Part shown: piece after piece, positions 1 through 64,000 of the stretch
Layout: each line of letters starts with the position of its first letter
Position numbering within the stretch: position 1 is the stretch's first letter
Made by a program: the position numbers and the translations under genes
Virus record (IMG/VR): IMGVR_UViG_3300005689_000056
Location: 35,462-99,461 of that record
Strand: one strand, 5' to 3'
Source of the DNA: a virus
DNA length: 64,000 bases
The notes under the pieces: model-generated
The model's database searches: none
What the model was told of the DNA's origin: nothing
Seen by the model: only the letters and a program-made list of their open reading frames with translations

Positions 1-837
1 AAAGACCGGTGCCAATTGGCACCCAAGAATAGTATTAAAGAAAACCTAAAAACGAATAGTGATGATGGAGGACGTTTGGCTTCGCCGCACGTCGGGAGGG
101 TTCGTAGAGTAAGGCCAGCAACCACCCAGCAGGAAAATGCAATTGATTGCAAAAGCAAGATCCTGTCCATCGCACAGAAAGCCGCTGAGCGTTCCGCTAC
201 AAAGCAGTTGGAGAAAGTTCGGCGGGGCCGCGCCGCCGCGCCCGGGGCAATTACGCTTACCGATCTTAACGCTACGTGGAAGCGTTGTATGGTGCAGGCG
301 TTCGGTAAGTGCGCGGTGGGTGCTCTTACACATGTCGAGTACGGTGTATTCAAAAAGATCGTGAAGGCCCACGATATATCATTCCCGTGGGTTGAGTTCT
401 TTGAGTGGATCATTGGGTCTTGGTCCGCACTGAACGACGACCACAAGAGGCGTGTGGATTACGCGAGGAAGAAAGAGGGCGGGTGGCCCCCCACCGATGA
501 TGGTTCTTTCTACCTAGGTACCGAGACACCCATGCTGTCGTCGGTGGTTAAGAATCTGGTCAAGCTCTCACGCATCTACACAGACAACCGCAACCGCGCA
601 GTGTCACGCGTTACGTCGGATGCCGCCAAGTACATTGAAGAGGCGGAGCGTCAGCGAGTACGCGCGGAGAAGGCCGAGAAAGCACTGCAGAAAGTATCGT
701 CCTTGCGTAGCACCCGGAAAGATACCCCAGCACCCGCGCGGCGGCAGCGTAGCGCCGTGGCGACTATCGCTAGGCCGGAGGATGATGACTACTTCGCAAA
801 AGACGACCAGCTACCTGATTGGGAGGCTCAAGGATGA
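1..837 (+). CDS. Putative replication initiator-like protein, 5'-truncated
   Basis: Frame is open from base 1; lies directly upstream of loader-like and DnaB genes; function inferred from context only. Confidence 0.5.
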   Translation, partial: KDRCQLAPKNSIKENLKTNSDDGGRLASPHVGRVRRVRPATTQQENAIDCKSKILSIAQKAAERSATKQLEKVRRGRAAAPGAITLTDLNATWKRCMVQAFGKCAVGALTHVEYGVFKKIVKAHDISFPWVEFFEWIIGSWSALNDDHKRRVDYARKKEGGWPPTDDGSFYLGTETPMLSSVVKNLVKLSRIYTDNRNRAVSRVTSDAAKYIEEAERQRVRAEKAEKALQKVSSLRSTRKDTPAPARRQRSAVATIARPEDDDYFAKDDQLPDWEAQG

Positions 838-1427
838 ACAAGCACGAGATGTTGCGGGCAGGGATACCTGCAGACGCTATCGCCACTACGTTACCCAATG
901 CTGGGTTTCAAAACATACGTGATCGTATTCGCGATGGCTCTTTGCTGGTACCCGGTAGGGCTATCGTTGTCGCTCCAGCGGGTGTAACCAACACCGAGTC
1001 GGTAGGTCGTGCGGAGTTGGCTTTTTATCTGACGATGAAGGAGTTGATGCTAGCTAGCAAGGTTGATGGGGTGATCCTGTCTCTTGCCGAGCTAAACATG
1101 ATGATCCTTGAGGGTCGAGATACTGCCAACCATCGTGCGGTAGGTGACGGGCTGGAGATCTATGACCTAGGTACAGAGGATACGCTTTTGGGTGTCTCAG
1201 GATTCGTGGCTAACGGTGAGTCTTACATCGAGCCCCGGGTCCGGGAATTCCTCTCAGCCTTGCTACTGAAGTGGATGCGTAGAGGTAACCGCATTGTGTT
1301 CGGTTGTCATTGTTTTGCCTCACGCCTTGATAGTTGGTGGCCCCCGCACCTTGTGGCCTACATCGCACGTAACGGCGACACTTTCAATATCGGTAGCCTC
1401 AGCGATTCGGGGGCAGAGAATGAGTGA
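834..1427 (+). CDS. Possible degenerate DnaC-like helicase loader
   Basis: ATG overlaps the upstream stop; sits between initiator-like gene and DnaB; no intact Walker A. Confidence 0.4.
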   Translation: MNKHEMLRAGIPADAIATTLPNAGFQNIRDRIRDGSLLVPGRAIVVAPAGVTNTESVGRAELAFYLTMKELMLASKVDGVILSLAELNMMILEGRDTANHRAVGDGLEIYDLGTEDTLLGVSGFVANGESYIEPRVREFLSALLLKWMRRGNRIVFGCHCFASRLDSWWPPHLVAYIARNGDTFNIGSLSDSGAENE

Positions 1428-2676
1428 CGGGCTCAAGCTCATAGCCACCATTATCGATAACGGTAGCGTTCGTGCATTGAGGGAGATACCGTCGGAGCTA
1501 TTCGTGGAGGACGAGATACCGGTGTATCAGTTTATCCGGTCTCACTACCGACGGTACGGGGTACTGCCGGCGTACAGCACGGTAGAGGAGGAGTGTGACA
1601 TATCTATACCGGAACCAGAAGAAGGTATCGACTACTACCTGAAGAAGGTCAACGATAGGCGTATGTACAGCCTATTGCGCACGCAGTACTCTGAACTCCA
1701 GTCGTGTATGCGGGCTTACGATATGGATGCTGCGGCTGAGGTTATCGCAGGTATGCGCTCTACTACCCAGTCGCTTCGTATGGACGTGGATGTTATGGGG
1801 CTTGTAGAGGCGGCGTCCGCTGTGATGGATGAGTACGCTGTTGCGCACGAGAACCCCGGGCTTGCCGGCGTACCTACTTTGTGGCCGAGATACGATGAAT
1901 TGGTCGGGGGGTATCAGGGCGGTGACCTAGTCACCTACGTGGCTCGTCCCGGGGTTGGTAAGACGTACACGCTGCTAAGGCACGCACAGGCGGCTTACGC
2001 TACGGGTCATAGTATTCTGGTCGTATCTATGGAGATGACCATCACCCAGATGTCGCGCCGCTTCATGTCACTGGTCACAGGTATTGGCGCTGACTACATC
2101 CGACGAGGCCGTCTATCAACCTACGCAAGGCGCAGACTGCAGCAGTACGTTGATGACCTAGAGAGTACCGACAGGGCGCACTTTTTCACCGGGGGCGTTC
2201 GCAAGACCCCGTCTGACGTTGATATCCTCATACAGGAACTCAGGCCGGATATCTGCTACATCGACAGTATCTATCTCATGAACTCGGACAACAAGAAAGC
2301 CGTAACACGTCCGGACAAGGTGTCGGCAATCTTCGATGAGACGAAGCAGATTGCTGTCGCCCGCAAGTTGCCTATCGTCGCTACATCACAGTACAACCGG
2401 CTATCTGGAAAGAAAGGCAAAGACGGGTCACTTGAGACCATCGCGTATAGTGACGCCATCTCTACCCACAGTTCGGTAATACTATCGTTACAGGAAGGGT
2501 TGCCGGGTCGCGAGGCAGTCACGCGCCAAGGTACCCTGATTAAGGGTCGCGAGGGGGAGGCAGGTACTGTTTTCTACCACTACTCGTTTAGACCCGTAAA
2601 CATGGATGAGATGACGCCAGAAGAGATCGGGAATGAGACACAGGACGGTGAGCCCGATCTCGATTGGGTTGGTTGA
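1420..2676 (+). CDS. dnaB: DnaB-like replicative helicase
   Basis: ARPGVGKT Walker A, SMEM, YIDSIYLM, SQYNR, KGREG motifs. Confidence 0.92.
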   Translation: MSDGLKLIATIIDNGSVRALREIPSELFVEDEIPVYQFIRSHYRRYGVLPAYSTVEEECDISIPEPEEGIDYYLKKVNDRRMYSLLRTQYSELQSCMRAYDMDAAAEVIAGMRSTTQSLRMDVDVMGLVEAASAVMDEYAVAHENPGLAGVPTLWPRYDELVGGYQGGDLVTYVARPGVGKTYTLLRHAQAAYATGHSILVVSMEMTITQMSRRFMSLVTGIGADYIRRGRLSTYARRRLQQYVDDLESTDRAHFFTGGVRKTPSDVDILIQELRPDICYIDSIYLMNSDNKKAVTRPDKVSAIFDETKQIAVARKLPIVATSQYNRLSGKKGKDGSLETIAYSDAISTHSSVILSLQEGLPGREAVTRQGTLIKGREGEAGTVFYHYSFRPVNMDEMTPEEIGNETQDGEPDLDWVG

Positions 2677-2700
2677 AATCGATTGCAAAGTGGGGATGCC

Positions 2701-2904
2701 ATGGACCGGTACGCGTATCTACTCAGCCTAGATGAGATCTTCTTCGTGAAGGAGCATCAGGATAGCCCGCAGGTTCAGGCACTCATTGCCACCTGCGAAA
2801 AGATTGTAGACCTTGAGGAGCAACTTGACGCGCTGCGCGATACGATGGCTGTGCAGAGTCAGGAAATGTTCCGGCGTAGAAGGAGAGTACGGCGTGACGT
2901 ATAG
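2701..2904 (+). CDS. Small hypothetical protein with Arg-rich C-terminus
   Basis: GGGG-like RBS; fills the gap between helicase and polymerase. Confidence 0.6.
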   Translation: MDRYAYLLSLDEIFFVKEHQDSPQVQALIATCEKIVDLEEQLDALRDTMAVQSQEMFRRRRRVRRDV

Positions 2905-5590
2905 CCAGCATTGCGAAGGCTGCCCCCTGCACGGTACGGGGGTGCCAGTGAGCCACAAAGGCTCTACATTGTCGCGGTTTGTCGTTGTCACAGATACACC
3001 ATCGCAGTACAACGCACGCGAGGGTCGTCTGTTATCGAATAGCGCCAGTACCGTGCTCGGTAAGGCCATGAAGGCTGCGGGGTTTGAGAGGGATGACTTC
3101 TGCTACTACCCGCAGGTTCGTTGCCCGCACGAGGCCGACCAGTACAGCACCAAAGAGAAGAAAGCCATCAGGGATCACTGTAGGCCGCACATGGTTGAGT
3201 TCGTCCAGCGTGTAAAGCCGGAGGCGGTGATACCGCTTGGTGCAGAGGCCTCCAGACAGGTACTGTCGCGGGCAGCTAAGATCACCAAAGTTCGCGGGGT
3301 GGTAGAGCATAGCGATGAGCTAGACACTCACGTTTTCCCTATGCTCAGCCCGGGTATGGTGACGATGTACCCTCAGCACCAGCAGACTTTCTATGCGGAC
3401 TGCCGTGCCCTGAGCGAGCTATGCGACGTATCGTTCAACCTTCGGGTACGGTCTCGCAAGATGCTGGGGCGGTACGAGTTCATTGACGATCTGCAGTTCC
3501 TGATCGACATGGAGCCTACGCTTCTATTCTTCGACACGGAAAACACCGGCTTGTCGTGGTTCCATGAAGGTAAGCACGACGTTCGCGACTACGACCCGCA
3601 CACCTGCGGTAAGGAGTTTGACCCAGCGGCTGCTATCCTCACGATGCAGTTTACTGTCAAGGCCGGCGAGTCCTACATGCTTGTGTGGGATCACCCGGAG
3701 CGCCCCGCGTCCCCACGAGCGAAAGCCAAGCTGCGCAAGCAGTTGCGTAGGCTACTATGCAACCCCAAGACGCGGGTGATAAGCCAGAACGCCAAGTACG
3801 ACGCTACGTATATGGCCGGTGTTGAGGGCATAGACTACCGTATCGGCGGGTGCACACTCATGCTGGCTACGCTACTTGACGAGAACTCACTATCGCGAAG
3901 CCAAGATACGCTGGTTCGACAGTGGGTGCCTGAGATGGCCGGGTATGCTGACCACTTCAACGCGACTACCGATAAGTCACGTATGTGGGAGGTGCCGCTA
4001 GACAAACTCATAAACTACGGTTGCGGTGACGCGGATAGCGGCTTCAGGCTCTATAAGAAGTTGATTAAAGAGGTGTCATCCGATAAGCGGCTACTTGATC
4101 ACTACCGGTATGTGTCCTTGCCGGGTCTTAACACTTTCAAGGGCATCGAGTTGCGGGGGATGGACGTAGACGAAGATGCACTGGATGCGTTCGAGACCCT
4201 TATGGACGGCATGGTGACTGAGCAGTATTCGTCGCTGATAGAGCAGGTACCGCGCAGCATCAAGCGTAAGCACCTGCAAGAATTTGCTGAGAAGAAGAAG
4301 AAACCAGAAGACGCCTTGAAGTTTTCCCGGGCAGAATTTGTGCGGGACATTCTCTTTACACACAGGGACGGGTTCCGGCTGAGGCCCAAAGTCTTCACAA
4401 AGACTACGGCCAAGTTGTCTGCAGATAAGCGAATACCTAGCACATCCACCAAGGACCATCTACCGTACTTCCATGACGACTGCCCTTTCACGATTGAGTT
4501 GTCTGAGTACATTAAAAACGAGCGGCTGCTTAATACCAGTGTTCGCGGGTTTAAAAAGAAGTACATACACGCAGCTAAGGTCAGGCCTACCTACAGTCTG
4601 ACCACGGCGCGTACTGGGCGCACGTCTTCCGAAGACCCTAACGGCCAGAACTTCCCTAAGCGCGGGAAGATGGCTAAGGCTTACAGGCGCTGCTTTGTAG
4701 CTCCGGAAGGTTACTATGTCTTAGAGGCCGACTTATCGCAAGCAGAGCTACGAATATCTGCAGATGAAGCCAACGAGACCACGATGCTCAAGGTCTATCG
4801 TGAGGGGGGCGACATCCATACCGAGACAGCCACAATCGTGATGGGTCTTACTAAGGCCGCATTCTTGAAACTACCGGTGTCGGAGCAGAAGGACGCGCGG
4901 CAGAAAGCTAAGGCTGTGAACTTCGGCTTCATTTACGGTATGGGTTGGCGTAAGTTTATCGGCTACGCTAAGACGCAATACGGTGTTGAATTTACCGACG
5001 ATGAAGCGCAGCGCATCCGGTCTCAGTTCTTCATCAAGTACAGTAAGCTGGAAGCATGGCACGAGAAGTACCGCAATATGGCTAGGCGCGATAAGCAGGT
5101 ACGTTCGTATAGTGGGCGGATACGCCATCTACCAATGATCGACTCTGAGGATGAGATGGTGCAGCAGGAGGCAGGCCGGCAGGCGATCAATAGCCCTGTA
5201 CAGGAGTTCGCTTCTTCGCTTGGCGTTATGGCGATGTCTCGCCTGTCGGAAGAGATCGACCCTCGATACCTTGCTCCGATAGCGTTCGTGCATGACGCTA
5301 TCTATTGCTTGGTACCCAAGCAGCACCTTGAGTGGGGGGCCAAGACCCTCAAGTGGTACATGGAGACTAACCCGATTGAGGAGTGGTTTGGTATCCGCAT
5401 GAAGTGCCCTATTGTCGCGGATGTATCGTTCGGTATTAATTTCGGTGATACGTTTGAGTTGAAGGGTCTCACACTAGATGAGCCGTACGACTTCAGCGTG
5501 TTCTCGGCAGCAGAGGACGACGATGCGCCCTATATCGAGGTTGTAGAACAAGCTGATCCGCCTAACTACGGCCTGATCGAGTACGATTGA
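2894..5590 (+). CDS. Family A DNA polymerase with N-terminal uracil-DNA-glycosylase-like domain and 3'-5' exonuclease
   Basis: AGGAG RBS before GTG 2894; CEGCPL Cys cluster; FFDTE, QNAKYD, YGCGDAD exo motifs; TGRTSS, ADLSQAELR, KAVNFGFIYG, VHDA polymerase motifs. Confidence 0.93.
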   Translation: MTYSQHCEGCPLHGTGVPVSHKGSTLSRFVVVTDTPSQYNAREGRLLSNSASTVLGKAMKAAGFERDDFCYYPQVRCPHEADQYSTKEKKAIRDHCRPHMVEFVQRVKPEAVIPLGAEASRQVLSRAAKITKVRGVVEHSDELDTHVFPMLSPGMVTMYPQHQQTFYADCRALSELCDVSFNLRVRSRKMLGRYEFIDDLQFLIDMEPTLLFFDTENTGLSWFHEGKHDVRDYDPHTCGKEFDPAAAILTMQFTVKAGESYMLVWDHPERPASPRAKAKLRKQLRRLLCNPKTRVISQNAKYDATYMAGVEGIDYRIGGCTLMLATLLDENSLSRSQDTLVRQWVPEMAGYADHFNATTDKSRMWEVPLDKLINYGCGDADSGFRLYKKLIKEVSSDKRLLDHYRYVSLPGLNTFKGIELRGMDVDEDALDAFETLMDGMVTEQYSSLIEQVPRSIKRKHLQEFAEKKKKPEDALKFSRAEFVRDILFTHRDGFRLRPKVFTKTTAKLSADKRIPSTSTKDHLPYFHDDCPFTIELSEYIKNERLLNTSVRGFKKKYIHAAKVRPTYSLTTARTGRTSSEDPNGQNFPKRGKMAKAYRRCFVAPEGYYVLEADLSQAELRISADEANETTMLKVYREGGDIHTETATIVMGLTKAAFLKLPVSEQKDARQKAKAVNFGFIYGMGWRKFIGYAKTQYGVEFTDDEAQRIRSQFFIKYSKLEAWHEKYRNMARRDKQVRSYSGRIRHLPMIDSEDEMVQQEAGRQAINSPVQEFASSLGVMAMSRLSEEIDPRYLAPIAFVHDAIYCLVPKQHLEWGAKTLKWYMETNPIEEWFGIRMKCPIVADVSFGINFGDTFELKGLTLDEPYDFSVFSAAEDDDAPYIEVVEQADPPNYGLIEYD

Positions 5591-5614
5591 CAAAGAAATT
5601 GATACAGGTATAAT
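5587..5614 (+). promoter_or_regulatory. Sigma70-type promoter
   Basis: TTGACA-16 bp-TATAAT, then AGGAGG and ATG 5636. Confidence 0.8.
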
Positions 5615-5635
5615 GTAACTTTCGTAGGAGGCCAT

Positions 5636-6058
5636 ATGGCTATACGCGTTAGAAGGGTTCGCCGGGGTGGGGCCGACGTAAACCCACACAAAGATACGAT
5701 GGACCGGCTTTTGCAATCGATTGCAGAAAAGCAGGAGGAGGCTGCGCGTCTGACTTCTCTTGCTGCGGCGGAGCTAGTCCAGCTTAACGGCTTGATGGGC
5801 GACTTGAAGCTGGGTACCTACCAGTTCGAGAATATCTACGCCACCCGCGCTCAATCTACAGGTCGGGCCACGAACTTTATTGACCCTGCGGCATTCCGTA
5901 AGGAGTGTGCGAGTGATAAGGAATTCTACGGCGCGGTGACCGTATCCATTACCGAGGCTAAGGCCATCCTGCCGGGTAAGGTCTTGGAGAAGATCATTGA
6001 GACGAAGCCGGCCAAGCCCGGTCCTTACACTACCAAGGTTAGTCGCAAGGTGAAGTGA
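5636..6058 (+). CDS. Hypothetical protein with N-terminal RVRRVR
   Basis: Strong RBS and promoter; stop overlaps primase start. Confidence 0.8.
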   Translation: MAIRVRRVRRGGADVNPHKDTMDRLLQSIAEKQEEAARLTSLAAAELVQLNGLMGDLKLGTYQFENIYATRAQSTGRATNFIDPAAFRKECASDKEFYGAVTVSITEAKAILPGKVLEKIIETKPAKPGPYTTKVSRKVK

Positions 6059-7050
6059 TGGACCGGGAAAGTATTCACGCATTCATGAGTGAGGTCGCGG
6101 GGCCTAATATCGAACTGATCGACCATCCCAGTTGGGTGTCCTTCAGGTGTGTGTTGGCTCCGTGGACGCATGAGCGTGGTACAGATCGCACGCCTTCTGC
6201 AGGTATCTCGATAAACGAGGGCGGCACCAGTATTTACCATTGCTGGGCGTGCGGGGGTAAGAACAAAGGCCCGCTCGATTGGCTTCTGCGACGGCTGGAG
6301 GGCTTTACTGGGGACTCGTATCGTGAGTTGCGTCAATCTATCGACGGTACCGAGTTTATTGGCGGTGCGTTGCCTGAGTGGGGGTCGAAGGCTAGAGCCC
6401 GGTCACGTCTTCAGTTCCTAGACGAAGACATCTATATGGATCTGTTCGATAGTGCCGTAGGGCATCCTTACTTGAAGAGTAGGGGCCTCAATAGGTGGGC
6501 TACGAAAACACTGCAACTAATGGTAGACCCTGCGGACTCTCGCGGAGAGGAGCGCATAGTATTTCCAGTGTTTACGCCCGGGGGGAGGTTGGTAGGTTTC
6601 TCGGGCAGGGCTACAGGTGAAGATGTAGACCCAAAGGTTCGTGATTACTTTGGTTTGGTTAAGGAAGAGGTATTGTTAGGTTCGCATCTACTAGAACCGG
6701 ATGATGAGTACGTGATGGTTGTCGAAGGCCTTTTCGACTACGCGAAGTCCGTTATGTATGGCTTCCCGGCAGTCGCCGCTATGCATGCGGGGCTTACGGC
6801 AGCACAGGCTAAAATCTTGCGCAATCTAGGTAAGCCGGTAGTACTGATGTACGACGATGACAACGCCGGTAGGGATGCTACGGATAAGGCGATAGAGGCG
6901 TTGCTGCCATATCTTCCAGTAAGTTACGTCCGGTACCCCAAACGTAGGAAGGTAGGGGGAGGTAAATGTGTGAAGACAAAAAGCGATCCCGGGTCGCTAA
7001 GCGAAGCCGAGATGGTATCCATGGTGGCGGCAAGAAAAATCGTAGTTTGA
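6055..7050 (+). CDS. DNA primase (zinc finger plus TOPRIM)
   Basis: YHCWAC, GFSGR, VVEGLFD, YDDDNAG, SDPG motifs. Confidence 0.9.
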   Translation: MMDRESIHAFMSEVAGPNIELIDHPSWVSFRCVLAPWTHERGTDRTPSAGISINEGGTSIYHCWACGGKNKGPLDWLLRRLEGFTGDSYRELRQSIDGTEFIGGALPEWGSKARARSRLQFLDEDIYMDLFDSAVGHPYLKSRGLNRWATKTLQLMVDPADSRGEERIVFPVFTPGGRLVGFSGRATGEDVDPKVRDYFGLVKEEVLLGSHLLEPDDEYVMVVEGLFDYAKSVMYGFPAVAAMHAGLTAAQAKILRNLGKPVVLMYDDDNAGRDATDKAIEALLPYLPVSYVRYPKRRKVGGGKCVKTKSDPGSLSEAEMVSMVAARKIVV

Positions 7051-7406
7051 CAGTTGTACCGTGCCTACCTAGTATTACGTCTGACGCCGACGAGGGTATA
7101 GATATAGCAGCTAGACTGCTTAGCCCTTTGCGTCAAGGTAAGGGAGTAACCCTGAGCGTTACGGATAAGAGATTGAGCAAGAAACGGCGGATTAAATCCG
7201 CCACACTGTTTCTTACACCGGGTTCCGCCTATGGCGGCAGTGATAGCGTGATCTTGGCTTCGATGCCGGGGTACGGCAGTGAATTGTTCGATATCTATAC
7301 CGTCAAGCCTATGGTCTTTTACCGTGTTGGTTTGAGTATGCGTCTTTCGCGGGCGCTGGTAGCAGCAATCACTGATGTTTTTCAAGGAGTAAATCATGGT
7401 TCGTAA
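7047..7406 (+). CDS. Hypothetical protein, start uncertain
   Basis: Open frame fills the primase-SSB gap; TTG 7047 overlaps the primase stop. Confidence 0.45.
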   Translation: MTVVPCLPSITSDADEGIDIAARLLSPLRQGKGVTLSVTDKRLSKKRRIKSATLFLTPGSAYGGSDSVILASMPGYGSELFDIYTVKPMVFYRVGLSMRLSRALVAAITDVFQGVNHGS

Positions 7407-8661
7407 GGCAGCAAGAACCTCTGCACATCGCGGTGCGGAAGGGCGTGCAAAAGCCGAGGCAGAGCGTGAACGCGCCGCAGCCCGCGCCGAGGCTCGCAAA
7501 AACCAAGGTAACATCCCGTTCCGGTTCCGCGTACCGGTGGGTGAGACGACACAGGCAATCATCTGCGATGAGGAGCCGTACTTTTTCCGGTTTGAGCACA
7601 ACCTGAAGAATCCGAAGACTGGCAAGTGGGATACATTCACCGGTTGCGTCGCGGAGTACGACAACTGCCCAGTGTGCGCCGCCACGGACAAGGAAGCGTA
7701 TTACGCGATGTACCTTACCGTGATTGACCTTACGCCGTTTGAGACCAAGAACGGTGACGAAGTCGAGTTCAGTCGCAAGTTGCTGGTCGTCAAGCCGGCG
7801 CAACAGAAAAAGTTTCTTCGCATGTATGCCAAGGCCGAGGCCAAGGGCAATACTCTGCGGGGGGCGCTGATCGAGTTTACCCGTGACTCTGACAAGGATG
7901 CGTCCATCGGTAACGAGATCGAACTACTCGAATACGTGGATGAGGAGGAGCTTGAGACCTACACTCGCTCGTGGAAGGACAAGGACGGTAAGCGTCACGA
8001 GGAGATCTGTCACGAAGTACTGGACTATGACGAGCTTTTCCCTGAACCCGACGTTGATCAACTTCGTGCGCTGGTAGGCGGCGAGCCGGTTCCCGGTAGC
8101 CGCGAGCATGAACGCTCAGCGCTTGGTCGTGGTAGCAGCCGTCGCACCTCGCGCCGCGATGAGGAAGCGGACGATGAGGAGGAAGAAGACGAAGGCAAGC
8201 ACGCTCGCGGTCGTATGCGGACAGGCGGTAAGGCTCCAGCCAAGGCAGCTACCAAGACCCGCCCCGCCGCGCGCCGCGCTCGTGAGGAGGAAGAGGAAGG
8301 GGACGATGAGGACGATGAGGAGGACGATGAGGCTGCACCCCCACGCCGTGGTCGTTCGTCTACCAAGACCCGCCCCGCCGCGCGCCGCGCTCGTGAGGAG
8401 GAAGAGGAGACCAAACCGTCCCGTCGTGGTCGCCCGGCGGCAAAGAAGGCTGACGATCCGCCATTCGACACCGACGACGATGAGGAGGAAGAGGAAGACG
8501 ACGAGGAGGAGGATACCAAGGCCTCCGCCAAGACCCGTCCCGCACCGCGTCGTGGTCGTTCGGTAGCGAAGAAAGACGACGAAGAGGAAGAAGAAGAGGA
8601 AGAAGAAGAGAAGGTTAATCGGCGCAACCCCCGTCGTGTATCCATGCGTCGCGGTCGGTAA
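7396..8661 (+). CDS. Putative single-stranded DNA-binding protein with long charged disordered tail
   Basis: AAGGAG RBS; H..C..CPVC zinc-like N-domain as in phage SSBs; alternating D/E and R/K blocks. Confidence 0.65.
   Translation: MVRKAARTSAHRGAEGRAKAEAERERAAARAEARKNQGNIPFRFRVPVGETTQAIICDEEPYFFRFEHNLKNPKTGKWDTFTGCVAEYDNCPVCAATDKEAYYAMYLTVIDLTPFETKNGDEVEFSRKLLVVKPAQQKKFLRMYAKAEAKGNTLRGALIEFTRDSDKDASIGNEIELLEYVDEEELETYTRSWKDKDGKRHEEICHEVLDYDELFPEPDVDQLRALVGGEPVPGSREHERSALGRGSSRRTSRRDEEADDEEEEDEGKHARGRMRTGGKAPAKAATKTRPAARRAREEEEEGDDEDDEEDDEAAPPRRGRSSTKTRPAARRAREEEEETKPSRRGRPAAKKADDPPFDTDDDEEEEEDDEEEDTKASAKTRPAPRRGRSVAKKDDEEEEEEEEEEKVNRRNPRRVSMRRGR
8249..8408 (+). repeat. 49-bp perfect direct repeat inside the SSB-like tail
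   Basis: 8249-8297 equals 8360-8408, encoding TKTRPAARRAREEEE twice. Confidence 0.9.
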
Positions 8662-8705
8662 TACACTTTGAAGGGTGCGGGGGTGTAAGCCTCCGCACAT
8701 ACCAC

Positions 8706-10286
8706 ATGAAAGCCTACGTATCCGGTGCGGTGTATCTCCCACGTAAGTTTTTCGAAAGCCGGGACTTGGAGTCAGACCTGACTATCAAGTACTACAAAAT
8801 GGGTGAGCCAGACCCTCTGTATGTAGAGGCGTTCCAGCACGAAGGTAAGTACGTCGCTGTCCCGCGCGATTACGGTTTGCAATTGATTGCAGATCACGGT
8901 CTAGGCTTTGAAGATCGTATGTCTGACGGGCAGGATATGGACTACCCTAAAGTAGTCAAACACACAGGTGCGTACGCCTACCAGAAAGACTTCGTAAATC
9001 TGATTCTCGAGACTTGCAATGAAAGTAACGACTTTCTGATATCCGCCGCTACCGGTAAAGGTAAGACGGTGATGTCGTTGTCTGTATTCCAGAAGTTGGG
9101 GGTAAACGCTATTGTCGTGGTTGATCAACAAAACCTGCTTGACCAGTGGGTTGATCGAGCCAAGACCGTACTAGGCCTTACCGACGACCAGATAGGTATA
9201 GTGCAGGGGGGCAGAGCGGACTACGAAGGCAAGCATGTAACCATCGCTATGATGCAAACGCTTGTGTCCAGAAAGTACAGCGAGTCTTTCTACGACTACT
9301 TCGGCGTGGTTGTTTTTGACGAGGCCCATACGGCGGGTGCTCCGACATTCTCGCGGGCGTTGATGATGTTCTCGGCCCGTACTAGGTTCGGCGTGTCCGC
9401 TACTATCGAACGTCGCGATGCCTTACAGACTCTGCTTACTCACAACCTTGGGGCGGTTCGGGCAGAGCTAAAAGACAAGCACGACACCTCGTATGTGTAC
9501 TACGTTGAGAACTCAAGCATTTACTCGTGGTATGCAAATGTCTCACCTAAGACGGGCAGAATGCTGTCCGAGGTCGCGGAGGATACCGACAGAAATCTGG
9601 TACTAGCCACAGCGGCTAAATGGCTGTATGACTCAGGAAGAACTGTTCTTGTTCTTAGTGACCGCATCGAGCAGCTTGAAGCCCTACAGGTACTACTATC
9701 CTGTATGGGTGTCCCGGAGGACGAGTCGGCGGTATATACCGGCTACCACACGGTATGGGCGTACCGTAAAAATCCGAGACCGCTACGTAAGCCTATGGAT
9801 TACGTGCGTGGTACGGAATTCACACCGGTCATTCTCACCCCGGTTAAAAAGAAGCTGTCAAAGAAAACTAAGGCGGAGATGTTAGGTAGTACGCCTGCCA
9901 AGATAAAAATATTGCTCGCTACTTTCGGTATGTTCGCTAAGGGCGTGGATGTGCCGGAACTGTCCGGCGGGGTGGATGCCACCCCTAGGGCTAGGGCTGA
10001 GCAGGCTCACGGTAGAATTCTTCGTGTACGAGACGGTAAGCTGGTTCCTATATGGGTGACCCTGCGGGATGTTAATTCTTACCGTAACGATCATCAGTTT
10101 GCACAGCGCGTGAAGGACTACGCGGCGAGTTCTGCGGAGATATACAGATGGAGAATAGGAAAGGGACTGCGTCGAATCGACGTAGACGATCTGGTACGCG
10201 AAGCCAGACAGAACGTAGCACGCCTGAAAAAGCTACGGATCGAAACGAGCTTAGACGGCAACAATACGCTAGTGACCCCGCCCTAG
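8706..10286 (+). CDS. Superfamily 2 (DEAH) helicase
   Basis: AATGKGKT, VFDEAH, SAT, KGVDVP, QAHGRILR. Confidence 0.9.
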   Translation: MKAYVSGAVYLPRKFFESRDLESDLTIKYYKMGEPDPLYVEAFQHEGKYVAVPRDYGLQLIADHGLGFEDRMSDGQDMDYPKVVKHTGAYAYQKDFVNLILETCNESNDFLISAATGKGKTVMSLSVFQKLGVNAIVVVDQQNLLDQWVDRAKTVLGLTDDQIGIVQGGRADYEGKHVTIAMMQTLVSRKYSESFYDYFGVVVFDEAHTAGAPTFSRALMMFSARTRFGVSATIERRDALQTLLTHNLGAVRAELKDKHDTSYVYYVENSSIYSWYANVSPKTGRMLSEVAEDTDRNLVLATAAKWLYDSGRTVLVLSDRIEQLEALQVLLSCMGVPEDESAVYTGYHTVWAYRKNPRPLRKPMDYVRGTEFTPVILTPVKKKLSKKTKAEMLGSTPAKIKILLATFGMFAKGVDVPELSGGVDATPRARAEQAHGRILRVRDGKLVPIWVTLRDVNSYRNDHQFAQRVKDYAASSAEIYRWRIGKGLRRIDVDDLVREARQNVARLKKLRIETSLDGNNTLVTPP

Positions 10287-10693: not shown

Positions 10694-10701
10694 GGTGAGT
10701 T

Positions 10702-11037
10702 ATGGATTCAGGGAGAGTAAGACGGGTGCGACCCAGCGGTGAGGGGGCTTCCGAGGAAACCGTAGAGGTGGTATCTACCTCGGTTACAGGGCAGGCATCG
10801 CCCACCGTAAAGCAACGTACGCTGAGTGTGCGCAAGTTTGTCACTCAGCCGGCGTACGTAGGGGTCTCTGCCGGGGTAACCAAAGAGACAGGGTCGTACG
10901 AGTTTCTGCGGGTAGACATCACCGTCAATATGCCGTGCTACGTAGAGGAAGTGGATCGCGTATCTCACGAGGTTGCAGAGTATGTTGCGCAGCGTCTTGA
11001 CGAAGAGATAACCGAGTATCTTGGCGGGGAGGAATAA
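10702..11037 (+). CDS. Hypothetical protein with N-terminal GRVRRVRP
   Basis: GAGGTG RBS; tight packing. Confidence 0.75.
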   Translation: MDSGRVRRVRPSGEGASEETVEVVSTSVTGQASPTVKQRTLSVRKFVTQPAYVGVSAGVTKETGSYEFLRVDITVNMPCYVEEVDRVSHEVAEYVAQRLDEEITEYLGGEE

Positions 11038-11038
11038 C

Positions 11039-12522: not shown

Positions 12523-12536
12523 AATCGATTGCAAAC

Positions 12537-18703: not shown

Positions 18704-18704
18704 C

Positions 18705-53344: not shown

Positions 53345-53938
53345 ATGCAATCGATTGCAAATTCCAAACTCAAGCGCAGGTCCGACAAGCAGTGGGACCG
53401 CATCGTGATGGCCGAAGTGTTGATCCCCGGCACCCCTAACGTGTTCGGCGATCTATGGACTGAGGAAGGTATCCAAGACGCTGTGCAGAAATACATGGTG
53501 CTTGGGTACATCATCGACGTAGAGCACGACATGGTGGATGTGACAGGTAAAGCCCACGTTGTCGAGTCGTTCATTGCGCGTGAGGGGGACACCACATTCA
53601 TTCCCGGCTCTTGGGTCATCGGTATGTATATCCCGGACGATGATCTCTGGGACAAGGTACTATCGGGGGAGATTAATGGTTTCTCGTTCGAGGCCGTCGT
53701 ATCTATGTTGGAGGGCGTGCTAGTATATGAGGACGACAACTTTCGAACCGGATACACTGAGCCAGACCCGTATGACGGGCATCGCCATCCCTTCGCCGTA
53801 TGGGTGGATGACGATAACCGACCGACAGCGGGAGGTACGGAAGAAGTTGACGGTCATTCACACACCATTACTACCCACTCTGTGACCGATGAGGCCGAAG
53901 GTCACACCCACCGATTCACCATACTGCAGGAGGTGTAA
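53345..53938 (+). CDS. Prohead protease (XkdF-like) with His-rich tail
   Basis: IDVEHD, VVESFIA, GSWVIG, GEINGFS; three GHxH repeats. Confidence 0.82.
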   Translation: MQSIANSKLKRRSDKQWDRIVMAEVLIPGTPNVFGDLWTEEGIQDAVQKYMVLGYIIDVEHDMVDVTGKAHVVESFIAREGDTTFIPGSWVIGMYIPDDDLWDKVLSGEINGFSFEAVVSMLEGVLVYEDDNFRTGYTEPDPYDGHRHPFAVWVDDDNRPTAGGTEEVDGHSHTITTHSVTDEAEGHTHRFTILQEV

Positions 53939-56980: not shown

Positions 56981-57013
56981 TTGCAATCGATTTCAAATCG
57001 GTAGGAGAGAATC

Positions 57014-59867: not shown

Positions 59868-59894
59868 CGCCCCTTCGGGGGCGTTTTGTTTTTT
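59868..59894 (+). terminator. Intrinsic terminator
   Basis: CGCCCC-TTCG-GGGGCG then T tract. Confidence 0.85.
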
Positions 59895-59931
59895 GCAACC
59901 AGTTGCAATAATCTAGGTAGGGAGGTTTACT

Positions 59932-60325: not shown

Positions 60326-60742
60326 ATGAGCGATACTGAAGTGAAGAACAGCGGCGACGATTTGGCAAAAGTATTCGACGTGCCGAAGGTGTTCACCTTA
60401 TCTGATGGTCGCGATGTGGTCATCTCGAAGAGCAAGCTGCGCAATCTTACGCGCATCATCAATTTTGCTCAGCGTGTGATTTCTTCGCTCACGTCGGCAG
60501 GCGTGATCGGGGTCTCGGGTACCGGCCTGAGCGTGGCAGTAAACAACCCGTCTGTGATTTTGCAATTGATTGCAGAATTCAGCGACGAGTTTTACTCGAT
60601 TGCTCAGCTTCACGTGTCGCTCAGCCTCGACGAGCTTATGGACATCGATACCGACGATGCGGTGTTGTTGTTCATCGAGATCATCAACTACAACAAACAT
60701 TTTTTCGTACAAAGGGTGGCGCCTCTTCTAAAACTACAGTAA
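60326..60742 (+). CDS. Tail assembly chaperone
   Basis: Position before tape measure; slippery T TTT TTC near the 3' end. Confidence 0.75.
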   Translation: MSDTEVKNSGDDLAKVFDVPKVFTLSDGRDVVISKSKLRNLTRIINFAQRVISSLTSAGVIGVSGTGLSVAVNNPSVILQLIAEFSDEFYSIAQLHVSLSLDELMDIDTDDAVLLFIEIINYNKHFFVQRVAPLLKLQ

Positions 60743-61035: not shown

Positions 61036-64000
61036 TGAGCTTCTAGCAGTAGATGTACGGGGCACAGACAACGTCTCCCCCGTACTCAAACAAATTGAGT
61101 CCGGGGTTATCCGGTTTGTGGGGGCGGTATCATCCGCCCTCACTGTTTTATCAGTCGTAGGGTTCCCAGTCGCCTCCGCAGCACAGTTCCAGAAAATGCT
61201 GCTGGAGGTGAAGAAGACTACCGACTTTACGTCTGACTCCATGCAGGTTCTGAAAGACGGACTGCTGGAGGTCTCAAAAGGCTCCAATGTCGCTCAGACA
61301 GAGCTAGCCCGTATTGCTGCCCTAGGCGGTCAGATGGGTGTGGGCGAGCAGGGGCCAGAAGCCCTCGTAGCCTTTACGGAAGAACTCTCCCGCGCTGTCA
61401 CCGCTCTGGACGTAAGTGCTGATCTTGCCGCCCCCGCGATGGGTAAGCTGGTCAATATCTTCAACCTACCTCTAGGCGAATTCCGTAACGCTGTCGCCGT
61501 TATCAACCAGTTATCCAACGTCTCCACTGCCACCGCTGAAGAGATCTTGGACGTGATGCGTCGTATCGGCGACTTGGGTGGCTCGTCTACGTTCTCGCAA
61601 TCTGCCGCGCTTTCCGCCCTAGCCATTGATATCGGTCTGACGGCAGAAACGGCAGGCACCACGATTACCAAGATCTTTGCCGACATGAAGTCGGAGGCCG
61701 CTGCGTTTGCCTCCTTCATGGGTATGTCTACTCAAGAGTGGGTTGACATTGTCGGTAACGACGCTGTGACCGGTCTGACTCTGTTCTTGCAGCAACTAAA
61801 CAGGCTACCCGCCGAAGTTGCCGCACAGTCGAAAGTCGAGCTTACGGGCGGTGGTCGTATCTTCGAATTTGTCACCAAGATGCAGAACCAGTTGCGTCAG
61901 GGTGACGGCTCGCGTATGGCTACTCTGCTTCGTGAAGCGAACGAAGAGTGGGTGCTTGGTACGTCTGCGATCAAAGAACAACAGAACGTACTGTCGGGTA
62001 CTATCGCCCAGTGGGAGATCTTCCGTAACCGTGTAAATACGACACTGATCGCGGGAGGTGACGAGGCCCTGCGCGGTATTAACGACTTGCTCGCGTCGCT
62101 AGGCGACACACTATCGGCGCCCGAGTTTGTCGAAGGCTTTGCTACTTTTGTGAGTAACGCCACCGAGGTTACGCGGGCCATCCTGACCATGATGGGGTCT
62201 GTGTCTAGTGTGCTGGGCGGTAGCGGTATTGAGTGGTCGTCAGTGTTCAATATCGCGGGTTTGCTCGTCGCCATCGGGATCATGAAGACTATCCCGGCCC
62301 TTATGGGTCTGGTAGGTCGCGCGGTCACCGGGGCGCGTAATACCCCTAGTTCTGCTGGGGGTGGGGCTGAAGAGCAGCAGATAGCCACGCAGCGTACGCT
62401 ACGCCAGCGCATCGAGGAGCGAGCACGCGCAGCAGTGGATGGCTATAGCCGCGAACAGCAGGCTATTGCTGCGACCTCGACACGTCGTAATGCCGACGCT
62501 GAGATCGCTCGCCGACAAGGCGAGCTAGCCCGCACGCAAGCCACCGCAGCAGCAGAGCATAACGTACTGCTGACTACACTGGAGAGGAACAAGGTAGCAC
62601 TCCGCTATGAGTCGCTACAAGCCACCGCACGGGCAGGACAGATCGAAGCAGCGTGGAACGCCAGACTCGCCACCCTGCAGCAGGCGAGAGTAGTTGCAGA
62701 GCAGAGGCTGGCGGCAGCTATCGCGGCTCGGGATACCGTATCTGAGAGATCCGCACGGGCGGAACTTGCGCGAGTTGGTCGGCAGGCCGGTGGGGTTAAC
62801 TCTAGCTACGCCCAGCAACTACAGCGTGAGCGTCAGCAATCACAGGCGATACTCGCGGGGATGCGTAACGATTACGGACGCACGCTGGAGGATATCCGCA
62901 CCCTGCGTCTTACTACTGGTACCCGCACCTCTATCCTTTCAGGAGAGATTGAGTCGTTCCAGCGTGATCGCGAACGGTTGCTCGCAGAAGTAGCTGCACT
63001 TCAGACCCAGACCAGCCGTAGTCGTCTGTTTACCGGCATGGAGTCGGCTGGTCGGGTCATGATGACCGGACTTATCGGTACCGTGACGGCGGGTATGCGA
63101 GTGATCAACGCTGTGAGTTTGCAATCGTTTGCAAATATGCAGACTAGCGGCACAAGCACTTTCCGCAGCATCGCCACACAAGCTACTGCTATGTCGGTTG
63201 CGGTACGCAACGCGTTCGCATCCATGGCCGGCATCGCCATACCTGCTGGGGCGAGTTTGGGTTTCGTCGGTAACGCTGCGGTAGTTGCGTCTGGCGGCAT
63301 AGCGGCACTAGCGCGAGGGGCTATCCTACTACGCGCAGGGTTGACTGGCCTGATGACTCTTGTAAGCCGGCTCTTCTACCTTTTTATCCTGATCGACATC
63401 GCTAAGATGGCTTTGCAGTTCCTCGGGGTAATGGATGATGTAGAGGCGCTGGTTGATAGCGTGATCGGTAAGTTCAACAAACTGACCGGGCTCAAGATTC
63501 CAAAGTTCTCTGATGCACGTGAGAGTGCGGCGGAAGCACGACAGCTTGAGCAGCAGATTCGCAATCGTGAGCGTCTGTACGCACAGGCGGAGGCTTTCGG
63601 TAAGCGTTTTGGCGAGATCCGCCCAGTAGCAGATATCGAACAAGAACCGTTCAACACGGGTCTTACTGATATGGCGAAGCGGCTAGATACGTTCATCGCT
63701 ACTATCGAGAAAGGTATTCAGTTTGGTGGTAGCGACGAGCTTGTGCCGGCAGAGGCTTTCCTGCAAGGCGCAGACGCCATCCGCACTATCGAGCAGCAGA
63801 TCACCGCCCTTACTGAGCGGCAGCGTGAGCTTAACGAAGAGCAGCAGCGCTCTAGCCAGACGGCAACGTATGACCCCCTCGCGCTGGCTCAGCTTGAGCG
63901 AGCAGCGGCTATCAACGCGCTGGAGGTAGATCAGCAGAAAGAGCTTGAGCGACTGCAAAAAGCCAAAGCTGCTGACGAGAAGGAATACATCGCTCGTCAG
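61028..64000 (+). CDS. Tape measure protein, 3'-truncated
   Basis: ATG 61028 MADELLAVDVRGTDNVS..ELARIAALGGQMG; Ala-rich helical frame running off the window, so absent from the ORF track. Confidence 0.9.
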   Translation, partial: MADELLAVDVRGTDNVSPVLKQIESGVIRFVGAVSSALTVLSVVGFPVASAAQFQKMLLEVKKTTDFTSDSMQVLKDGLLEVSKGSNVAQTELARIAALGGQMGVGEQGPEALVAFTEELSRAVTALDVSADLAAPAMGKLVNIFNLPLGEFRNAVAVINQLSNVSTATAEEILDVMRRIGDLGGSSTFSQSAALSALAIDIGLTAETAGTTITKIFADMKSEAAAFASFMGMSTQEWVDIVGNDAVTGLTLFLQQLNRLPAEVAAQSKVELTGGGRIFEFVTKMQNQLRQGDGSRMATLLREANEEWVLGTSAIKEQQNVLSGTIAQWEIFRNRVNTTLIAGGDEALRGINDLLASLGDTLSAPEFVEGFATFVSNATEVTRAILTMMGSVSSVLGGSGIEWSSVFNIAGLLVAIGIMKTIPALMGLVGRAVTGARNTPSSAGGGAEEQQIATQRTLRQRIEERARAAVDGYSREQQAIAATSTRRNADAEIARRQGELARTQATAAAEHNVLLTTLERNKVALRYESLQATARAGQIEAAWNARLATLQQARVVAEQRLAAAIAARDTVSERSARAELARVGRQAGGVNSSYAQQLQRERQQSQAILAGMRNDYGRTLEDIRTLRLTTGTRTSILSGEIESFQRDRERLLAEVAALQTQTSRSRLFTGMESAGRVMMTGLIGTVTAGMRVINAVSLQSFANMQTSGTSTFRSIATQATAMSVAVRNAFASMAGIAIPAGASLGFVGNAAVVASGGIAALARGAILLRAGLTGLMTLVSRLFYLFILIDIAKMALQFLGVMDDVEALVDSVIGKFNKLTGLKIPKFSDARESAAEARQLEQQIRNRERLYAQAEAFGKRFGEIRPVADIEQEPFNTGLTDMAKRLDTFIATIEKGIQFGGSDELVPAEAFLQGADAIRTIEQQITALTERQRELNEEQQRSSQTATYDPLALAQLERAAAINALEVDQQKELERLQKAKAADEKEYIARQ

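Follow-up and report, generated by a model that had tools for sequence, protein, structure and literature searches.

Why does a phage genome carry the same 16-bp palindrome at dozens of places, and what reads it? In the window (the whole 64-kb stretch of DNA that we analysed), the palindrome TTGCAATCGATTGCAA has 28 copies with at most three mismatches (Table 1), compared with 0.19 expected from dinucleotide shuffles, in which the largest count was 1. All 28 copies listed in the original prediction, with 1–3 mismatches each, are present. The lattice of sites continues outside the window: the entire 99,461-bp genome of this uncultured phage has 40 copies, including three perfect ones, all in the part outside the window (none of the 28 is perfect). 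The genome-wide distribution of mismatches is cleanly bimodal (3, 24, 10, 3, 3, and 15 sites with 0, 1, 2, 3, 4, and 5 mismatches). The true motif is 18 bp long (tTTGCAATCGATTGCAAa), and the flanks beyond it have no other conservation. We found no published description of this evenly spaced palindrome lattice in the literature.

Table 1. Genes and palindromic sites of the lattice, in window coordinates.
Feature	Coordinates	Strand	Context
Replication-recombination module	1420..13939	+	co-occurs with lattice
Candidate lattice reader, 454 aa	14053..15417	+	predicted structure, fold matches, homodimer prediction, co-occurrence
Two ParB_N-domain genes, 234 and 496 aa	15736..17935	+	adjoin reader gene
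Site ATGCAATTGATTGCAA	137..152	.	within 464-aa gene, frame 1
Site	2673..2688	.	overlaps DnaB-like helicase stop; next start 12 nt on
Site	5711..5726	.	within 140-aa gene after PolA, frame 0
Site	8877..8892	.	within SF2 helicase gene, frame 0
Site	12519..12534	.	overlaps Holliday-junction-resolvase stop; exonuclease start 2 nt on
Site	13941..13956	.	1 nt past RuvC stop; 96 nt upstream of candidate reader gene
Site	16824..16839	.	within 496-aa ParB_N-domain gene, frame 1
Site	18184..18199	.	within methyltransferase-like gene, frame 2
Site	23100..23115	.	intergenic; next start 6 nt on
Site	25900..25915	.	intergenic, in long non-coding stretch
Site	28888..28903	.	immediately past stop codon; next start 14 nt on
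Site	32405..32420	.	within 171-aa gene, frame 0
Site	35849..35864	.	1 nt past stop codon
Site	36884..36899	.	2 nt past stop codon
Site	39224..39239	.	2 nt past stop codon
Site	40390..40405	.	1 nt past stop codon
Site, 3 mismatches	41560..41575	.	1 nt past stop codon
Site	42113..42128	.	intergenic
Site	43759..43774	.	within 534-aa gene, frame 1
Site	46660..46675	.	in final 26 nt of 85-aa gene; next start 14 nt on
Site	49011..49026	.	2 nt past stop codon; next start 14 nt on
Site	51266..51281	.	6 nt past stop codon
Site	53345..53360	.	5 nt past portal stop; site's first ATG is next gene's start codon
Site	54347..54362	.	within 450-aa head gene, frame 0
Site	56981..56996	.	immediately past stop codon; next start 17 nt on
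Site, 3 mismatches	59893..59908	.	intergenic, just past terminator-like GGGGCGTTTTGTTTT
Site	60560..60575	.	within 138-aa gene, frame 0
Site	63119..63134	.	within tape-measure gene, frame 0

There is one site about every 2.5 kb along the whole genome, and the gaps are more even than a Poisson model allows (coefficient of variation, CV, of 0.41 versus 0.97 for random placement, P < 1e-5). None of 100,000 random site sets was as even or had as small a maximum gap. Within the window, the shortest gap is 553 nt and the longest 4916 nt, in agreement with the predicted 0.55–4.9 kb, and again just one gap, 18184–23100, exceeds 3.7 kb. This gap contains the large terminase gene (19451–22336), which, relative to its homologues in G004 and in Pseudomonas phage SM1, is interrupted at the Walker A site by about 300 additional aa. 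The insertion fits the intein that had been proposed for this gap; Pfam recognised no intein domain in the terminase.

The sites within genes account for the evenness. Intergenic DNA holds 21 of the 40 sites, even though non-coding DNA makes up just 9% of the genome, but the intergenic sites alone have a CV of 0.81 and leave a hole of 16 kb. Adding the 19 real intragenic sites lowers the CV to 0.41 and the maximum gap to 4.9 kb, which none of 20,000 random intragenic placements matched (P < 5e-5). Synonymous-codon shuffles yield 4.1 ± 1.6 intragenic sites instead of 19. Within the window, intragenic copies are read in all three frames, as predicted, with frame 0 (LQSIA) the commonest; by our own gene calls they number 12 of 28 rather than ten. 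About 12 further window sites, where about ten were expected, overlap a stop codon or begin at most 7 nt past one. No conserved promoter element lies at any fixed distance from the sites, and they show no association with sigma-70-like promoters or terminators and no promoter-like excess nearby. Because of this, and because sites lie in long genes where intergenic DNA is lacking, the data support the earlier claim that sites are kept for even coverage and not for promoter proximity.

The motif is conserved in related phages. Lattices of the form TGCAA-N4-TTGCA occur across a wide phage clade that includes dozens of IMG/VR contigs; lattices of this type are found in five IMG/VR genomes and in the cultured Pseudomonas phage SM1, Rhizobium phage L338C, and Aeromonas phage HJ05, and there is also a lattice at most of 71 further loci. 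The arms differ by lineage (TGCAA, TGAAA, TGCAG, or TGACA), as do the centres. The prediction of conserved arms and a variable centre applies chiefly when phages are compared; in the present genome, variation is as frequent at arm position 4/13 as in the centre. Most whole genomes tested have under-dispersed gaps, but in G004 (P 0.07) and HJ05 (CV 0.76, P 0.22) the under-dispersion is not significant.

The palindrome behaves as a symmetric DNA site for a dimeric protein, as originally claimed, and not as an RNA hairpin, because its half-sites vary independently and it has no strand bias. In lineages with both arm types, there are 57 mixed TGCAA/TGAAA sites versus 47 expected under independence, while compensation within a stem would predict about 0. 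The asymmetric centres of SM1 (whose palindrome is GTGCAARCGYTTGCAC) are split 11 versus 10 by strand.

Which protein binds it? Of the binders first suggested, the 454-aa product of the gene at 14053 has the best case: it co-occurs universally with the lattice, has a ParB/KorB-like DNA-binding fold and is predicted to form a homodimer, one of its residues covaries with a base of the motif, and a site lies upstream of its gene. The protein (SM1 counterpart gp050, YP_009594461.1) starts with a small N-terminal domain; an acidic linker rich in K, A, and P leads to a ParB/KorB-like helix-turn-helix DNA-binding domain (residues ~221–353), and a predicted dimerisation region follows (~356–412). Its AlphaFold model (pLDDT 88.5) resembles ParB-parS (6s6h, Z 7.7, 101 aligned residues, rmsd 3.2), Spo0J (1vz0, Z 6.8), VirB-DNA (3vwb, Z 6.5), KorB (8qa8, Z 6.3; 1r71, Z 6.1), and SopB-DNA (3mky, Z 5.1); these are modest matches (Z below 8), and helical domains inflate Z values. 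A Foldseek search gave nothing significant, ESM Atlas gave DUF3102/ParB-HTH leads, and the homologue in G001 matches DUF3102 at E 7e-5, under the family cut-off. In the homodimer test, the protein scored 0.56 versus 0.26 for the best control, a mark reached by 20 of 30 proteins solved as pairs and by 1 of 23 solved as single chains. Contacts agreed by at least 81% between runs, partner pLDDT was at least 72, and the predicted interface is at residues 142–198 of the domain. We found no ParB CTPase domain in the protein, which places it outside the ParB family and means that it cannot form a CTP sliding clamp alone. Also, K/A/P-rich tails are missing from the homologues in G001, G003, and G005, so coating of DNA by the tail cannot be a general mechanism.

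The 454-aa family and the replication-recombination module are present in all complete lattice genomes. (The module encodes a DnaB-like helicase, PolA with a UDG-like domain, primase, a gp32-like zinc SSB, an SF2 helicase, a RecA-like protein, a Holliday-junction resolvase, a Cas4-like exonuclease, and RuvC.) Co-occurrence cannot separate the 454-aa protein from other genes of the conserved module. In a conserved helix of the protein, all eight loci with GWAKA have TGAAA arms (73 versus 6 half-sites), and the sister locus L150 has GWTKA with TGCAA arms. This Thr/Ala switch tracks the C/A switch of the motif in two events, which coincide on the tree; the exceptions are the TGAAA lineages L179 and L196, which keep Thr or Ser. 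Finally, 26 of 64 loci have a site with perfect arms within 400 nt upstream of the reader gene (or 50 nt inside it), mostly 55–137 nt upstream, against a background of 0.108 per 450 nt. In this genome, a sigma-70-like pair (TTGCAG / TACTAT, by eye) lies between the upstream site and the gene. From this evidence we infer, with moderate confidence, that each palindrome serves, as double-stranded DNA, to dock a dimer of this phage-encoded protein, which would organise the whole phage DNA.

The other binders that had been put forward fare less well. The adjoining ParB_N-domain genes (15736 and 16445) carry a GxxRxxA motif and may be accessory to the reader, but we found no such proteins in the complete lattice-bearing genome G001, and in ORFs 10148 and 23373 we could detect no domain, and neither is conserved among the lattice phages. 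As for the roles suggested earlier, searches for ParA and for an integrase found neither, so plasmid-style partition and lysogenic silencing are unlikely; for silencing of the L5 type, the sites are also symmetric and without orientation bias.

A second possibility is that the same reader exerts KorB-like global control of transcription, with the bound lattice repressing or timing units along the one-stranded gene array and the ParB_N-domain proteins perhaps as sliding partners. On plasmid RK2, KorB acts from 12 dispersed OB palindromes. It influences promoters as far as 1.5 kb away (PMC11790492), and most of our 21 intergenic sites lie between a stop codon and the next ribosome-binding site. 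The site upstream of the reader gene in many lineages, the promoter-like pair behind it here, and the neighbouring GxxRxxA-bearing genes are also consistent with such control. However, it seems unlikely given the null promoter search, and a promoter-centred system would not need the 19 coding-sequence sites that even out the spacing. The ParB_N proteins are absent from G001, and the reader itself is without a CTPase domain.

Third, the sites could be read by a different protein, either a conserved host factor or another phage protein, such as the HTH small-terminase-like protein (18705–19454), the 103-aa module protein, or one of the ParB_N proteins. The identification of the 454-aa reader is indirect, and this genome's motif fits the generic LacI-family operator shape (TGNAANCGNTTNCA). 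Also, G002 has 28 sites but no detectable 454-aa homologue or other module gene, which counts against the 454-aa reader. However, this contig is just 81% complete and is without any replication gene or terminase; its lack of the module is probably due to incompleteness, as it ends where its relative G001 has the terminase and module. We consider a different reader quite improbable: whether the phage infects Rhizobium, Pseudomonas, or Aeromonas, its arms remain TGCAA-like, and the drift of centres and arms follows the phage lineage, which fits a co-evolving protein of the phage better than one of the host. The CNNG centres of L338C and HJ05 sometimes lack the CG that is required in LacI-type operators, and neither the ParB_N nor the TerS-like family is present in every lattice genome.

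Last, although many sites immediately follow a stop codon, 11 of the 28 sites in G002 lie within longer perfect palindromes (20–38 bp) with covarying outer arms, and the module is a T4-like set for recombination-dependent replication, it is very improbable that the palindromes are RNA hairpins (for stabilising or processing the polycistronic transcripts) or single-stranded DNA hairpins or cruciforms (as priming or recombination signals), given that this genome has no compensated arm variants, unlike half-sites are paired across mixed lineages as frequently as independence predicts, flank complementarity beyond +1 is at chance level except in G002, the stem would have only 6–7 bp, and hairpins within 19 coding sequences would be costly.

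Several known systems are similar to a lattice with a dimeric reader. Cluster O mycobacteriophages have 17-bp dyad repeats (TGTTCGGNNNCCGAACA) of unknown function, for which a dimeric DNA-binding protein was predicted (PMC4351075). Like our lattice, these are over 30 copies of one short palindrome across a non-temperate siphophage genome, partly intergenic and about one-third inside genes, without orientation bias or a promoter link. In contrast, their sequence, host phylum, and phage lineage are unrelated, they are denser at one genome end, and neither even spacing, gap filling, nor a reader was reported (PMC4351075). KorB with OB on RK2 (PMC11790492) and ParB, Noc, and VirB with parS, NBS, and VirB boxes also use a 13–16-bp palindrome at many dispersed sites on one replicon, and KorB, ParB, VirB, and SopB have DNA-binding domains similar to that of the candidate reader, for which a C-terminal dimer is predicted. 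Unlike KorB and ParB, the candidate has no N-terminal CTPase domain or detected ParA partner, and the lattice evenly tiles a lytic phage replicon, including coding sequence. The Cluster A stoperators (L5) are likewise 20–30 or more short protein-binding sites, some far from promoters, but they lack symmetry, follow the direction of transcription, and serve a temperate phage as binding sites of its immunity repressor, whereas our sites are symmetric and unbiased and no integrase was found.

We propose that a dimer of the 14053–15417 product would dock on each palindrome through its helix-turn-helix domain and C-terminal dimerisation region. Selection leaves no stretch of the genome more than about 2.5 kb from a site, taking intergenic slots first (typically in the order stop codon, site, ribosome-binding site) and placing sites in the coding sequence of long genes, so that the reader could mark and hold the entire phage chromosome. 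We do not think it likely that it is an operator protein for particular promoters, although it would repress its own gene, and the many sites exactly between genes would also fit a role in transcription. It would act on the whole DNA, organising, bridging, or shielding it during the replication-recombination-packaging phase.

Searching the window with TTGCAATCGATTGCAA and allowing up to three mismatches, we recovered the same 28 sites as the original prediction; dinucleotide shuffles of the window gave a mean of 0.19 and never more than one. The window spans bases 35462-99461 of a 99,461-bp IMG/VR record that is complete according to CheckV, and the whole genome contains 40 sites. Across the genome, the numbers of matches with 0, 1, 2, and 3 mismatches were 3, 24, 10, and 3, followed by 3, 15, and 99 matches with 4, 5, and 6 mismatches. 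Because this histogram is cleanly separated, the site family is well defined. By a count of bases at each position, the conserved word proves to be a palindrome of 18 bp, tTTGCAATCGATTGCAAa, with no information outside it except for traces of stop codons before it. The lattice is about twice as dense in one 8-kb stretch of small genes and long non-coding DNA upstream of the head genes (7 sites, gaps of 0.55-2.3 kb; see table).

The gaps between sites are far more even than a random model allows. Treating the genome as a circle, the gaps between the 40 sites ranged from 553 to 4916 nt and had a coefficient of variation (CV) of 0.41. Random placement gave a mean CV of 0.97, and none of 100,000 random sets reached this evenness or kept its largest gap so short. 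With 22 sites placed at random gene ends, a null model came no closer to the observed evenness. By our own crude gene calls (141 of 143 genes on the + strand, 91% coding sequence), 19 sites are wholly intragenic, and the other 21 lie between genes or overlap a stop codon. Most intergenic sites overlap a stop codon or begin no more than 7 nt from one, and 12-17 nt separate their end from the next start, so the spacer there is just the site plus the ribosome-binding site. Taken alone, the intergenic sites have a CV of 0.81, with a 16-kb stretch across the long tail genes left empty. Adding the 19 true intragenic sites brings the CV to 0.41 and the maximum gap to 4.9 kb, and none of 20,000 random intragenic placements matched that evenness. 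When codons were shuffled synonymously within each gene, we found 4.1 ± 1.6 intragenic sites (maximum of 10 in 200 shuffles) versus the 19 observed. Twelve of these are read in frame 0 (Leu-Gln-Ser-Ile-Ala) and the remaining two frames occur as well, as had been claimed. Because of the excess over codon shuffles, the filling of gaps, and the use of all frames, we conclude that selection acts on the DNA word itself and on the evenness of its spread.

The lattice is conserved in relatives. The exact 14-bp core TGCAATCGATTGCA is present in many IMG/VR contigs, and five lattice-bearing IMG/VR genomes of 77-134 kb (G001-G005) have 19-29 copies each, with outermost bases that are genome-specific (CTGCA...TGCAG or GGTGCA...TGCACC). 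Gaps were under-dispersed in four of these genomes (CV 0.47-0.58, P ≤ 0.011); the value for G004 was 0.74 (P = 0.07). Among cultured phages, Pseudomonas phage SM1 (Samunavirus) has 30 exact-arm copies of GTGCAARCGYTTGCAC (CV 0.55, P = 0.0006), Rhizobium phage L338C has 43 copies of TGCAA-CNNG-TTGCA in 100 kb (CV 0.62, P = 0.0008), and Aeromonas phage HJ05 has 16 copies of TTGCAACYGGTTGCAA in 79 kb (CV 0.76, not significant). The portal protein shares 49% identity with that of SM1 and about 38% with its counterparts in Rhizobium phages, and SM1 has the same gene order on one strand. We also collected 71 IMG/VR loci with the 454-aa product of the gene at 14053 (the candidate reader, see below) as the query, and in most of them the top inverted repeat was a lattice-type palindrome whose arms drift by lineage (TGCAA, TGAAA, TGCAG, or TGACA). 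Among distant members of the clade, the arms are TGCAG-N4-CTGCA in L185 (10 copies in 20 kb) and L198 and TGACA-N4-TGTCA in L190; these switches would be useful as natural variants in specificity. Megablast found no match to 20 kb of this genome among GenBank phages, and for G004 and G002 it found a 59-nt match in PolA or nothing. A search of sequencing runs returned only bioreactor and activated-sludge metagenomes.

This genome, G001, G003, G004, G005, and SM1 have little in common beyond one syntenic module of replication and recombination genes (window 1420-15417), as judged by BLAST and phmmer, and the module is also present in L338C and HJ05 (see table). G002 has 28 sites, yet we detected no homologue of any module family in it, even in six frames. 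However, G002 is 81% complete and is without any replication gene or terminase, and its contig end coincides with the position of the terminase and the module in its structural relative G001. The missing sequence probably carries the module. (G002 also encodes a 1759-aa ribonucleotide reductase that is split by two intein / homing-endonuclease insertions, with LAGLIDADG_3, Intein_splicing, and Hom_end domains.)

Features of the lattice-bearing genomes, with window coordinates unless another sequence is named
Feature	Coordinates	Remarks
DnaB-like helicase		module gene
Family A DNA polymerase (PolA) with N-terminal uracil-DNA-glycosylase-like domain	2894-5590	module gene, missing in some members; as SM1 gp037
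DnaG-type primase		module gene
421-aa protein, putative gp32-like zinc single-strand-binding protein	7396-8661	module gene
SF2 helicase		module gene
103-aa protein		module gene, no function assigned
RecA-like protein		module gene
Holliday-junction resolvase		module gene
Cas4-like exonuclease		module gene
RuvC		module gene
454-aa candidate reader	14053-15417 (+)	module gene
ParB_N proteins (234 and 496 aa)	in cluster 15736-18703	each with a GxxRxxA-like box; cluster lies between the reader gene and a small-terminase-like HTH gene
SAM-methyltransferase-like protein	in cluster 15736-18703	
Large terminase (961 aa)	19451-22336	with an insertion of about 300 aa, probably an intein
Denser stretch of the lattice	35849-43774	
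Ribonucleotide reductase of G002	L122:9545-14824	
Extended palindromes of G002 (L119-L124), examples	G002:6338, 12808, 17376, 31834, 43571, 49894	

Two genes in this region are worth describing further. The 421-aa protein of the module appears in public records only as "hypothetical," but it has invariant His68, Cys84, Cys91, and Cys94 followed by a long Arg-rich and acidic tail, and its homologues in G004 and L338C end in DDDIPF or DDNIPF. An end of the DDDIPF type is the classic SSB tail. From its sequence, this protein looks like a single-strand-binding protein of the T4 gp32 zinc type. The insertion in the large terminase, relative to the homologues in G004 and SM1, runs from residue ~130 to ~435 and ends just before the Walker A motif (GSGKT), so it is probably an intein; Pfam reported no terminase or intein domain in the 961-aa protein at E ≤ 0.01.

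Which protein reads the lattice? The original prediction listed several candidates, including the ParB-domain proteins. According to Pfam, the only ParB_N domains in this genome are in the two genes that adjoin the reader gene. That cluster is kept in G004 and SM1 and not in G001, and we found no ParB_N domain in G001, which is complete and bears the lattice. Thus, the ParB_N proteins cannot be essential to the lattice. The candidate from that list that we favor is the protein at 14053, on the basis of its fold, its predicted dimer, covariation, and a site upstream of its gene.

The reader has a small N-terminal domain, a long linker that is acidic and rich in Lys, Ala, and Pro, and a conserved helical C-terminal half. 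No Pfam family matches its 454 residues, PHROGs places it in a family without an assigned function, and its family comprises at least 96 sequence clusters, all unnamed. The G001 homologue has a sub-threshold match to DUF3102 (E = 7e-5), and clusters of DUF3102/ParB-HTH proteins are the reader's nearest named neighbors in the ESM Atlas; we found no function for DUF3102 in the searchable literature. An AlphaFold model of residues 215-425, built with 44 sequences, had a mean pLDDT of 88.5. In a full structural scan with this model, ParB-family DNA-binding domains were at ranks 1, 3, 4, 6, 10, and 44: ParB-parS (6s6h, Z = 7.7 over 101 residues, rmsd 3.2), Spo0J (1vz0, Z = 6.8), VirB-DNA (3vwb, Z = 6.5), KorB (8qa8 and 1r71, Z = 6.3 and 6.1), and SopB-DNA (3mky, Z = 5.1). 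These matches (from VIA-align) cover model residues ~7-139. For a helical domain these are all modest Z values; what carries weight is that the same family recurs. Foldseek against the PDB found nothing at E ≤ 0.001, and sequence-profile searches of the PDB returned only low-complexity noise.

The reader is also predicted to form a homodimer, with a score of 0.56, whereas the best control scored 0.26. (Of proteins solved as pairs, 20 of 30 attained this mark; of those solved as single chains, 1 of 23 did.) At least 81% of contacts agreed between runs, the pLDDT of the partner was at least 72, and the predicted interface (domain residues 142-198) lies behind the DNA-binding part. So, as modeled, the reader combines C-terminal dimerization with a palindromic site of 14-18 bp, as in the ParB/KorB/Noc family with its sites of 13-16 bp.

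Two kinds of observations link the reader to the sites. First, eight loci have Ala instead of Thr in a conserved helix of the reader (GWTKA), and all eight have almost only TGAAA arms (73 versus 6 half-sites); their sister locus L150 has Thr and TGCAA arms. On the tree, this amounts to two coincident changes. Two other TGAAA lineages keep Thr or have Ser, so this residue is not the sole determinant, and we saw no clear pattern of reader residues that follow TGCAG arms or the type of center. Second, at 26 of 64 non-redundant loci, a perfect-arm site lies in the 400 nt that precede the first ATG of the reader gene or in the first 50 nt of the gene, mostly 55-137 nt upstream; the background is 0.108 sites per 450 nt. 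In HJ05 the site is about 130 nt upstream, and in this genome there is an imperfect site 96 nt upstream, followed by a sigma-70-like pair of elements. The best-supported inference is that the lattice word is the docking site for a dimer of the 14053 protein, which would also control its own gene.

What the bound protein would do is less clear. A weaker inference is that its role concerns the DNA as a whole, in organizing, bridging, or shielding the replicating phage DNA. We favor this because the reader gene has remained flanked by the recombination genes and the terminase region even among distant relatives, because the placement of the sites ignores promoters, and because evenness is what selection maintains.

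The main rival is global control of transcription, as by KorB, whose DNA-binding domain is among the structural matches. KorB works as a CTP sliding clamp (PMC11790492). The ParB/Srx CTPase domain (ParB_N, with its GxxRxxA box) is absent from the N-terminus of the reader, so the reader is not a member of the ParB/KorB family and could not by itself act as such a clamp. A second possibility is that a host protein reads the lattice. G002 seemed to support this, as it bears the lattice and has no protein in common with this genome, but its incompleteness weakens that support. Also, the arms are alike in phages of Rhizobium, Pseudomonas, and Aeromonas and change along the phage tree, which points to a co-evolving phage factor instead.

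Third, the original prediction suggested partition or silencing. For a ParABS or plasmid-style partition system, the ParA/Soj-type ATPase partner is absent: at E ≤ 0.1, PF13614 matches each of the 14 control genomes and nothing in this complete genome. Silencing by stoperators of the L5 type, which are asymmetric, run with transcription, and belong to temperate phages with an immunity repressor, fares no better, as we found no tyrosine integrase in the genome and the sites are symmetric and unoriented. (Relative to the one direction in which SM1 is transcribed, the asymmetric centers of its sites read AACGCT in 11 cases and AGCGTT in 10, so neither strand is favored.) The lack of both ParA and an integrase argues against plasmid-style partition and lysogenic silencing.

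Fourth, the palindrome could act as an RNA hairpin, an intrinsic terminator, or a REP-like element. The commonest variants have a TGAAA left arm or a TTTCA right arm, and compensation is never seen in this genome. Among related loci rich in both arm types, 57 sites are mixed (TGCAA/TGAAA), versus 47 expected if half-sites are independent and about 0 if a stem is maintained. These results fit a dimeric protein that reads two half-sites on duplex DNA. We also found no conserved T-run beside the sites, and a consensus scan showed no association of the sites with terminators or sigma-70-like promoters. As no flank is conserved, and in a position-by-position count no −10 or −35 element keeps a constant distance from the sites, promoters can be set aside as well. 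Complementarity past the first flanking base is at chance level everywhere but in G002. There, 11 of 28 cores lie within longer perfect palindromes of 20-38 bp, whose outer arms vary between copies yet remain complementary (true covariation, absent from the other genomes), and these sites may have an additional role, for instance as a terminator or cruciform.

Fifth, the word could be a target for restriction or methylation, with a ClaI-like ATCGAT or a TCGA core. The long form, AATCGATT, has 24 of its 25 copies inside the lattice, but the short cores are neither avoided nor enriched outside it (24 versus 19 expected genome-wide from base composition for ATCGAT; 433 versus 379 for TCGA). Finally, a sigma-54 reading fails on visual inspection, with no GG and a spacing that differs by one base, and the AAA+ protein upstream of the module is a classic AAA protein and no sigma-54 activator.

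The closest published description concerns Cluster O mycobacteriophages, in which a 17-bp dyad repeat has 34 copies per genome, about a third of them intragenic, and no orientation bias (PMC4351075). The likeness extends to tens of copies in a non-temperate phage, both intergenic and intragenic sites, no link to promoters, and one denser end or stretch, although this class is defined by description only. That report gives neither even spacing nor a reader (PMC4351075). We found no mention of our motif strings or repeats in the searchable literature, including that on Samunavirus and L338C.

We return to a role for the reader on the DNA as a whole. Here is a conserved, co-evolving, symmetric DNA word that is held evenly spaced at a cost to coding sequence. 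A specific proposal, which we offer tentatively and consider rather doubtful, is that a CTPase-less ParB-like protein tiles the chromosome of a lytic phage from a self-marking lattice, within a recombination-dependent replication machinery. The tiling protein might be a two-way roadblock or Chi-like limiter, which would stop nucleases from resecting the linear DNA by more than a few kb and pass its ends on to the phage RecA. It might instead be a bridge that folds replicating concatemers for packaging.

Selection for the lattice has shaped codons in genes for the tail, the head, the helicase, and the tape measure, and it leaves no base farther than about 2.5 kb from a copy of the 16-18-bp word. 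This rule applies to a broad clade that includes phages of Rhizobium, Aeromonas, and Pseudomonas aeruginosa (Samunavirus, a genus used in therapy collections), and the lattice is a simple sequence signature for spotting this clade in metagenomes. As the lattice is present in cultured phages and we can name a specific candidate (gp050 of SM1), the need for a genome-wide lattice is now directly testable. If the proposal is true, it would be a new kind of chromosome-maintenance system for viruses, in cultured phages of Pseudomonas, Rhizobium, and Aeromonas.
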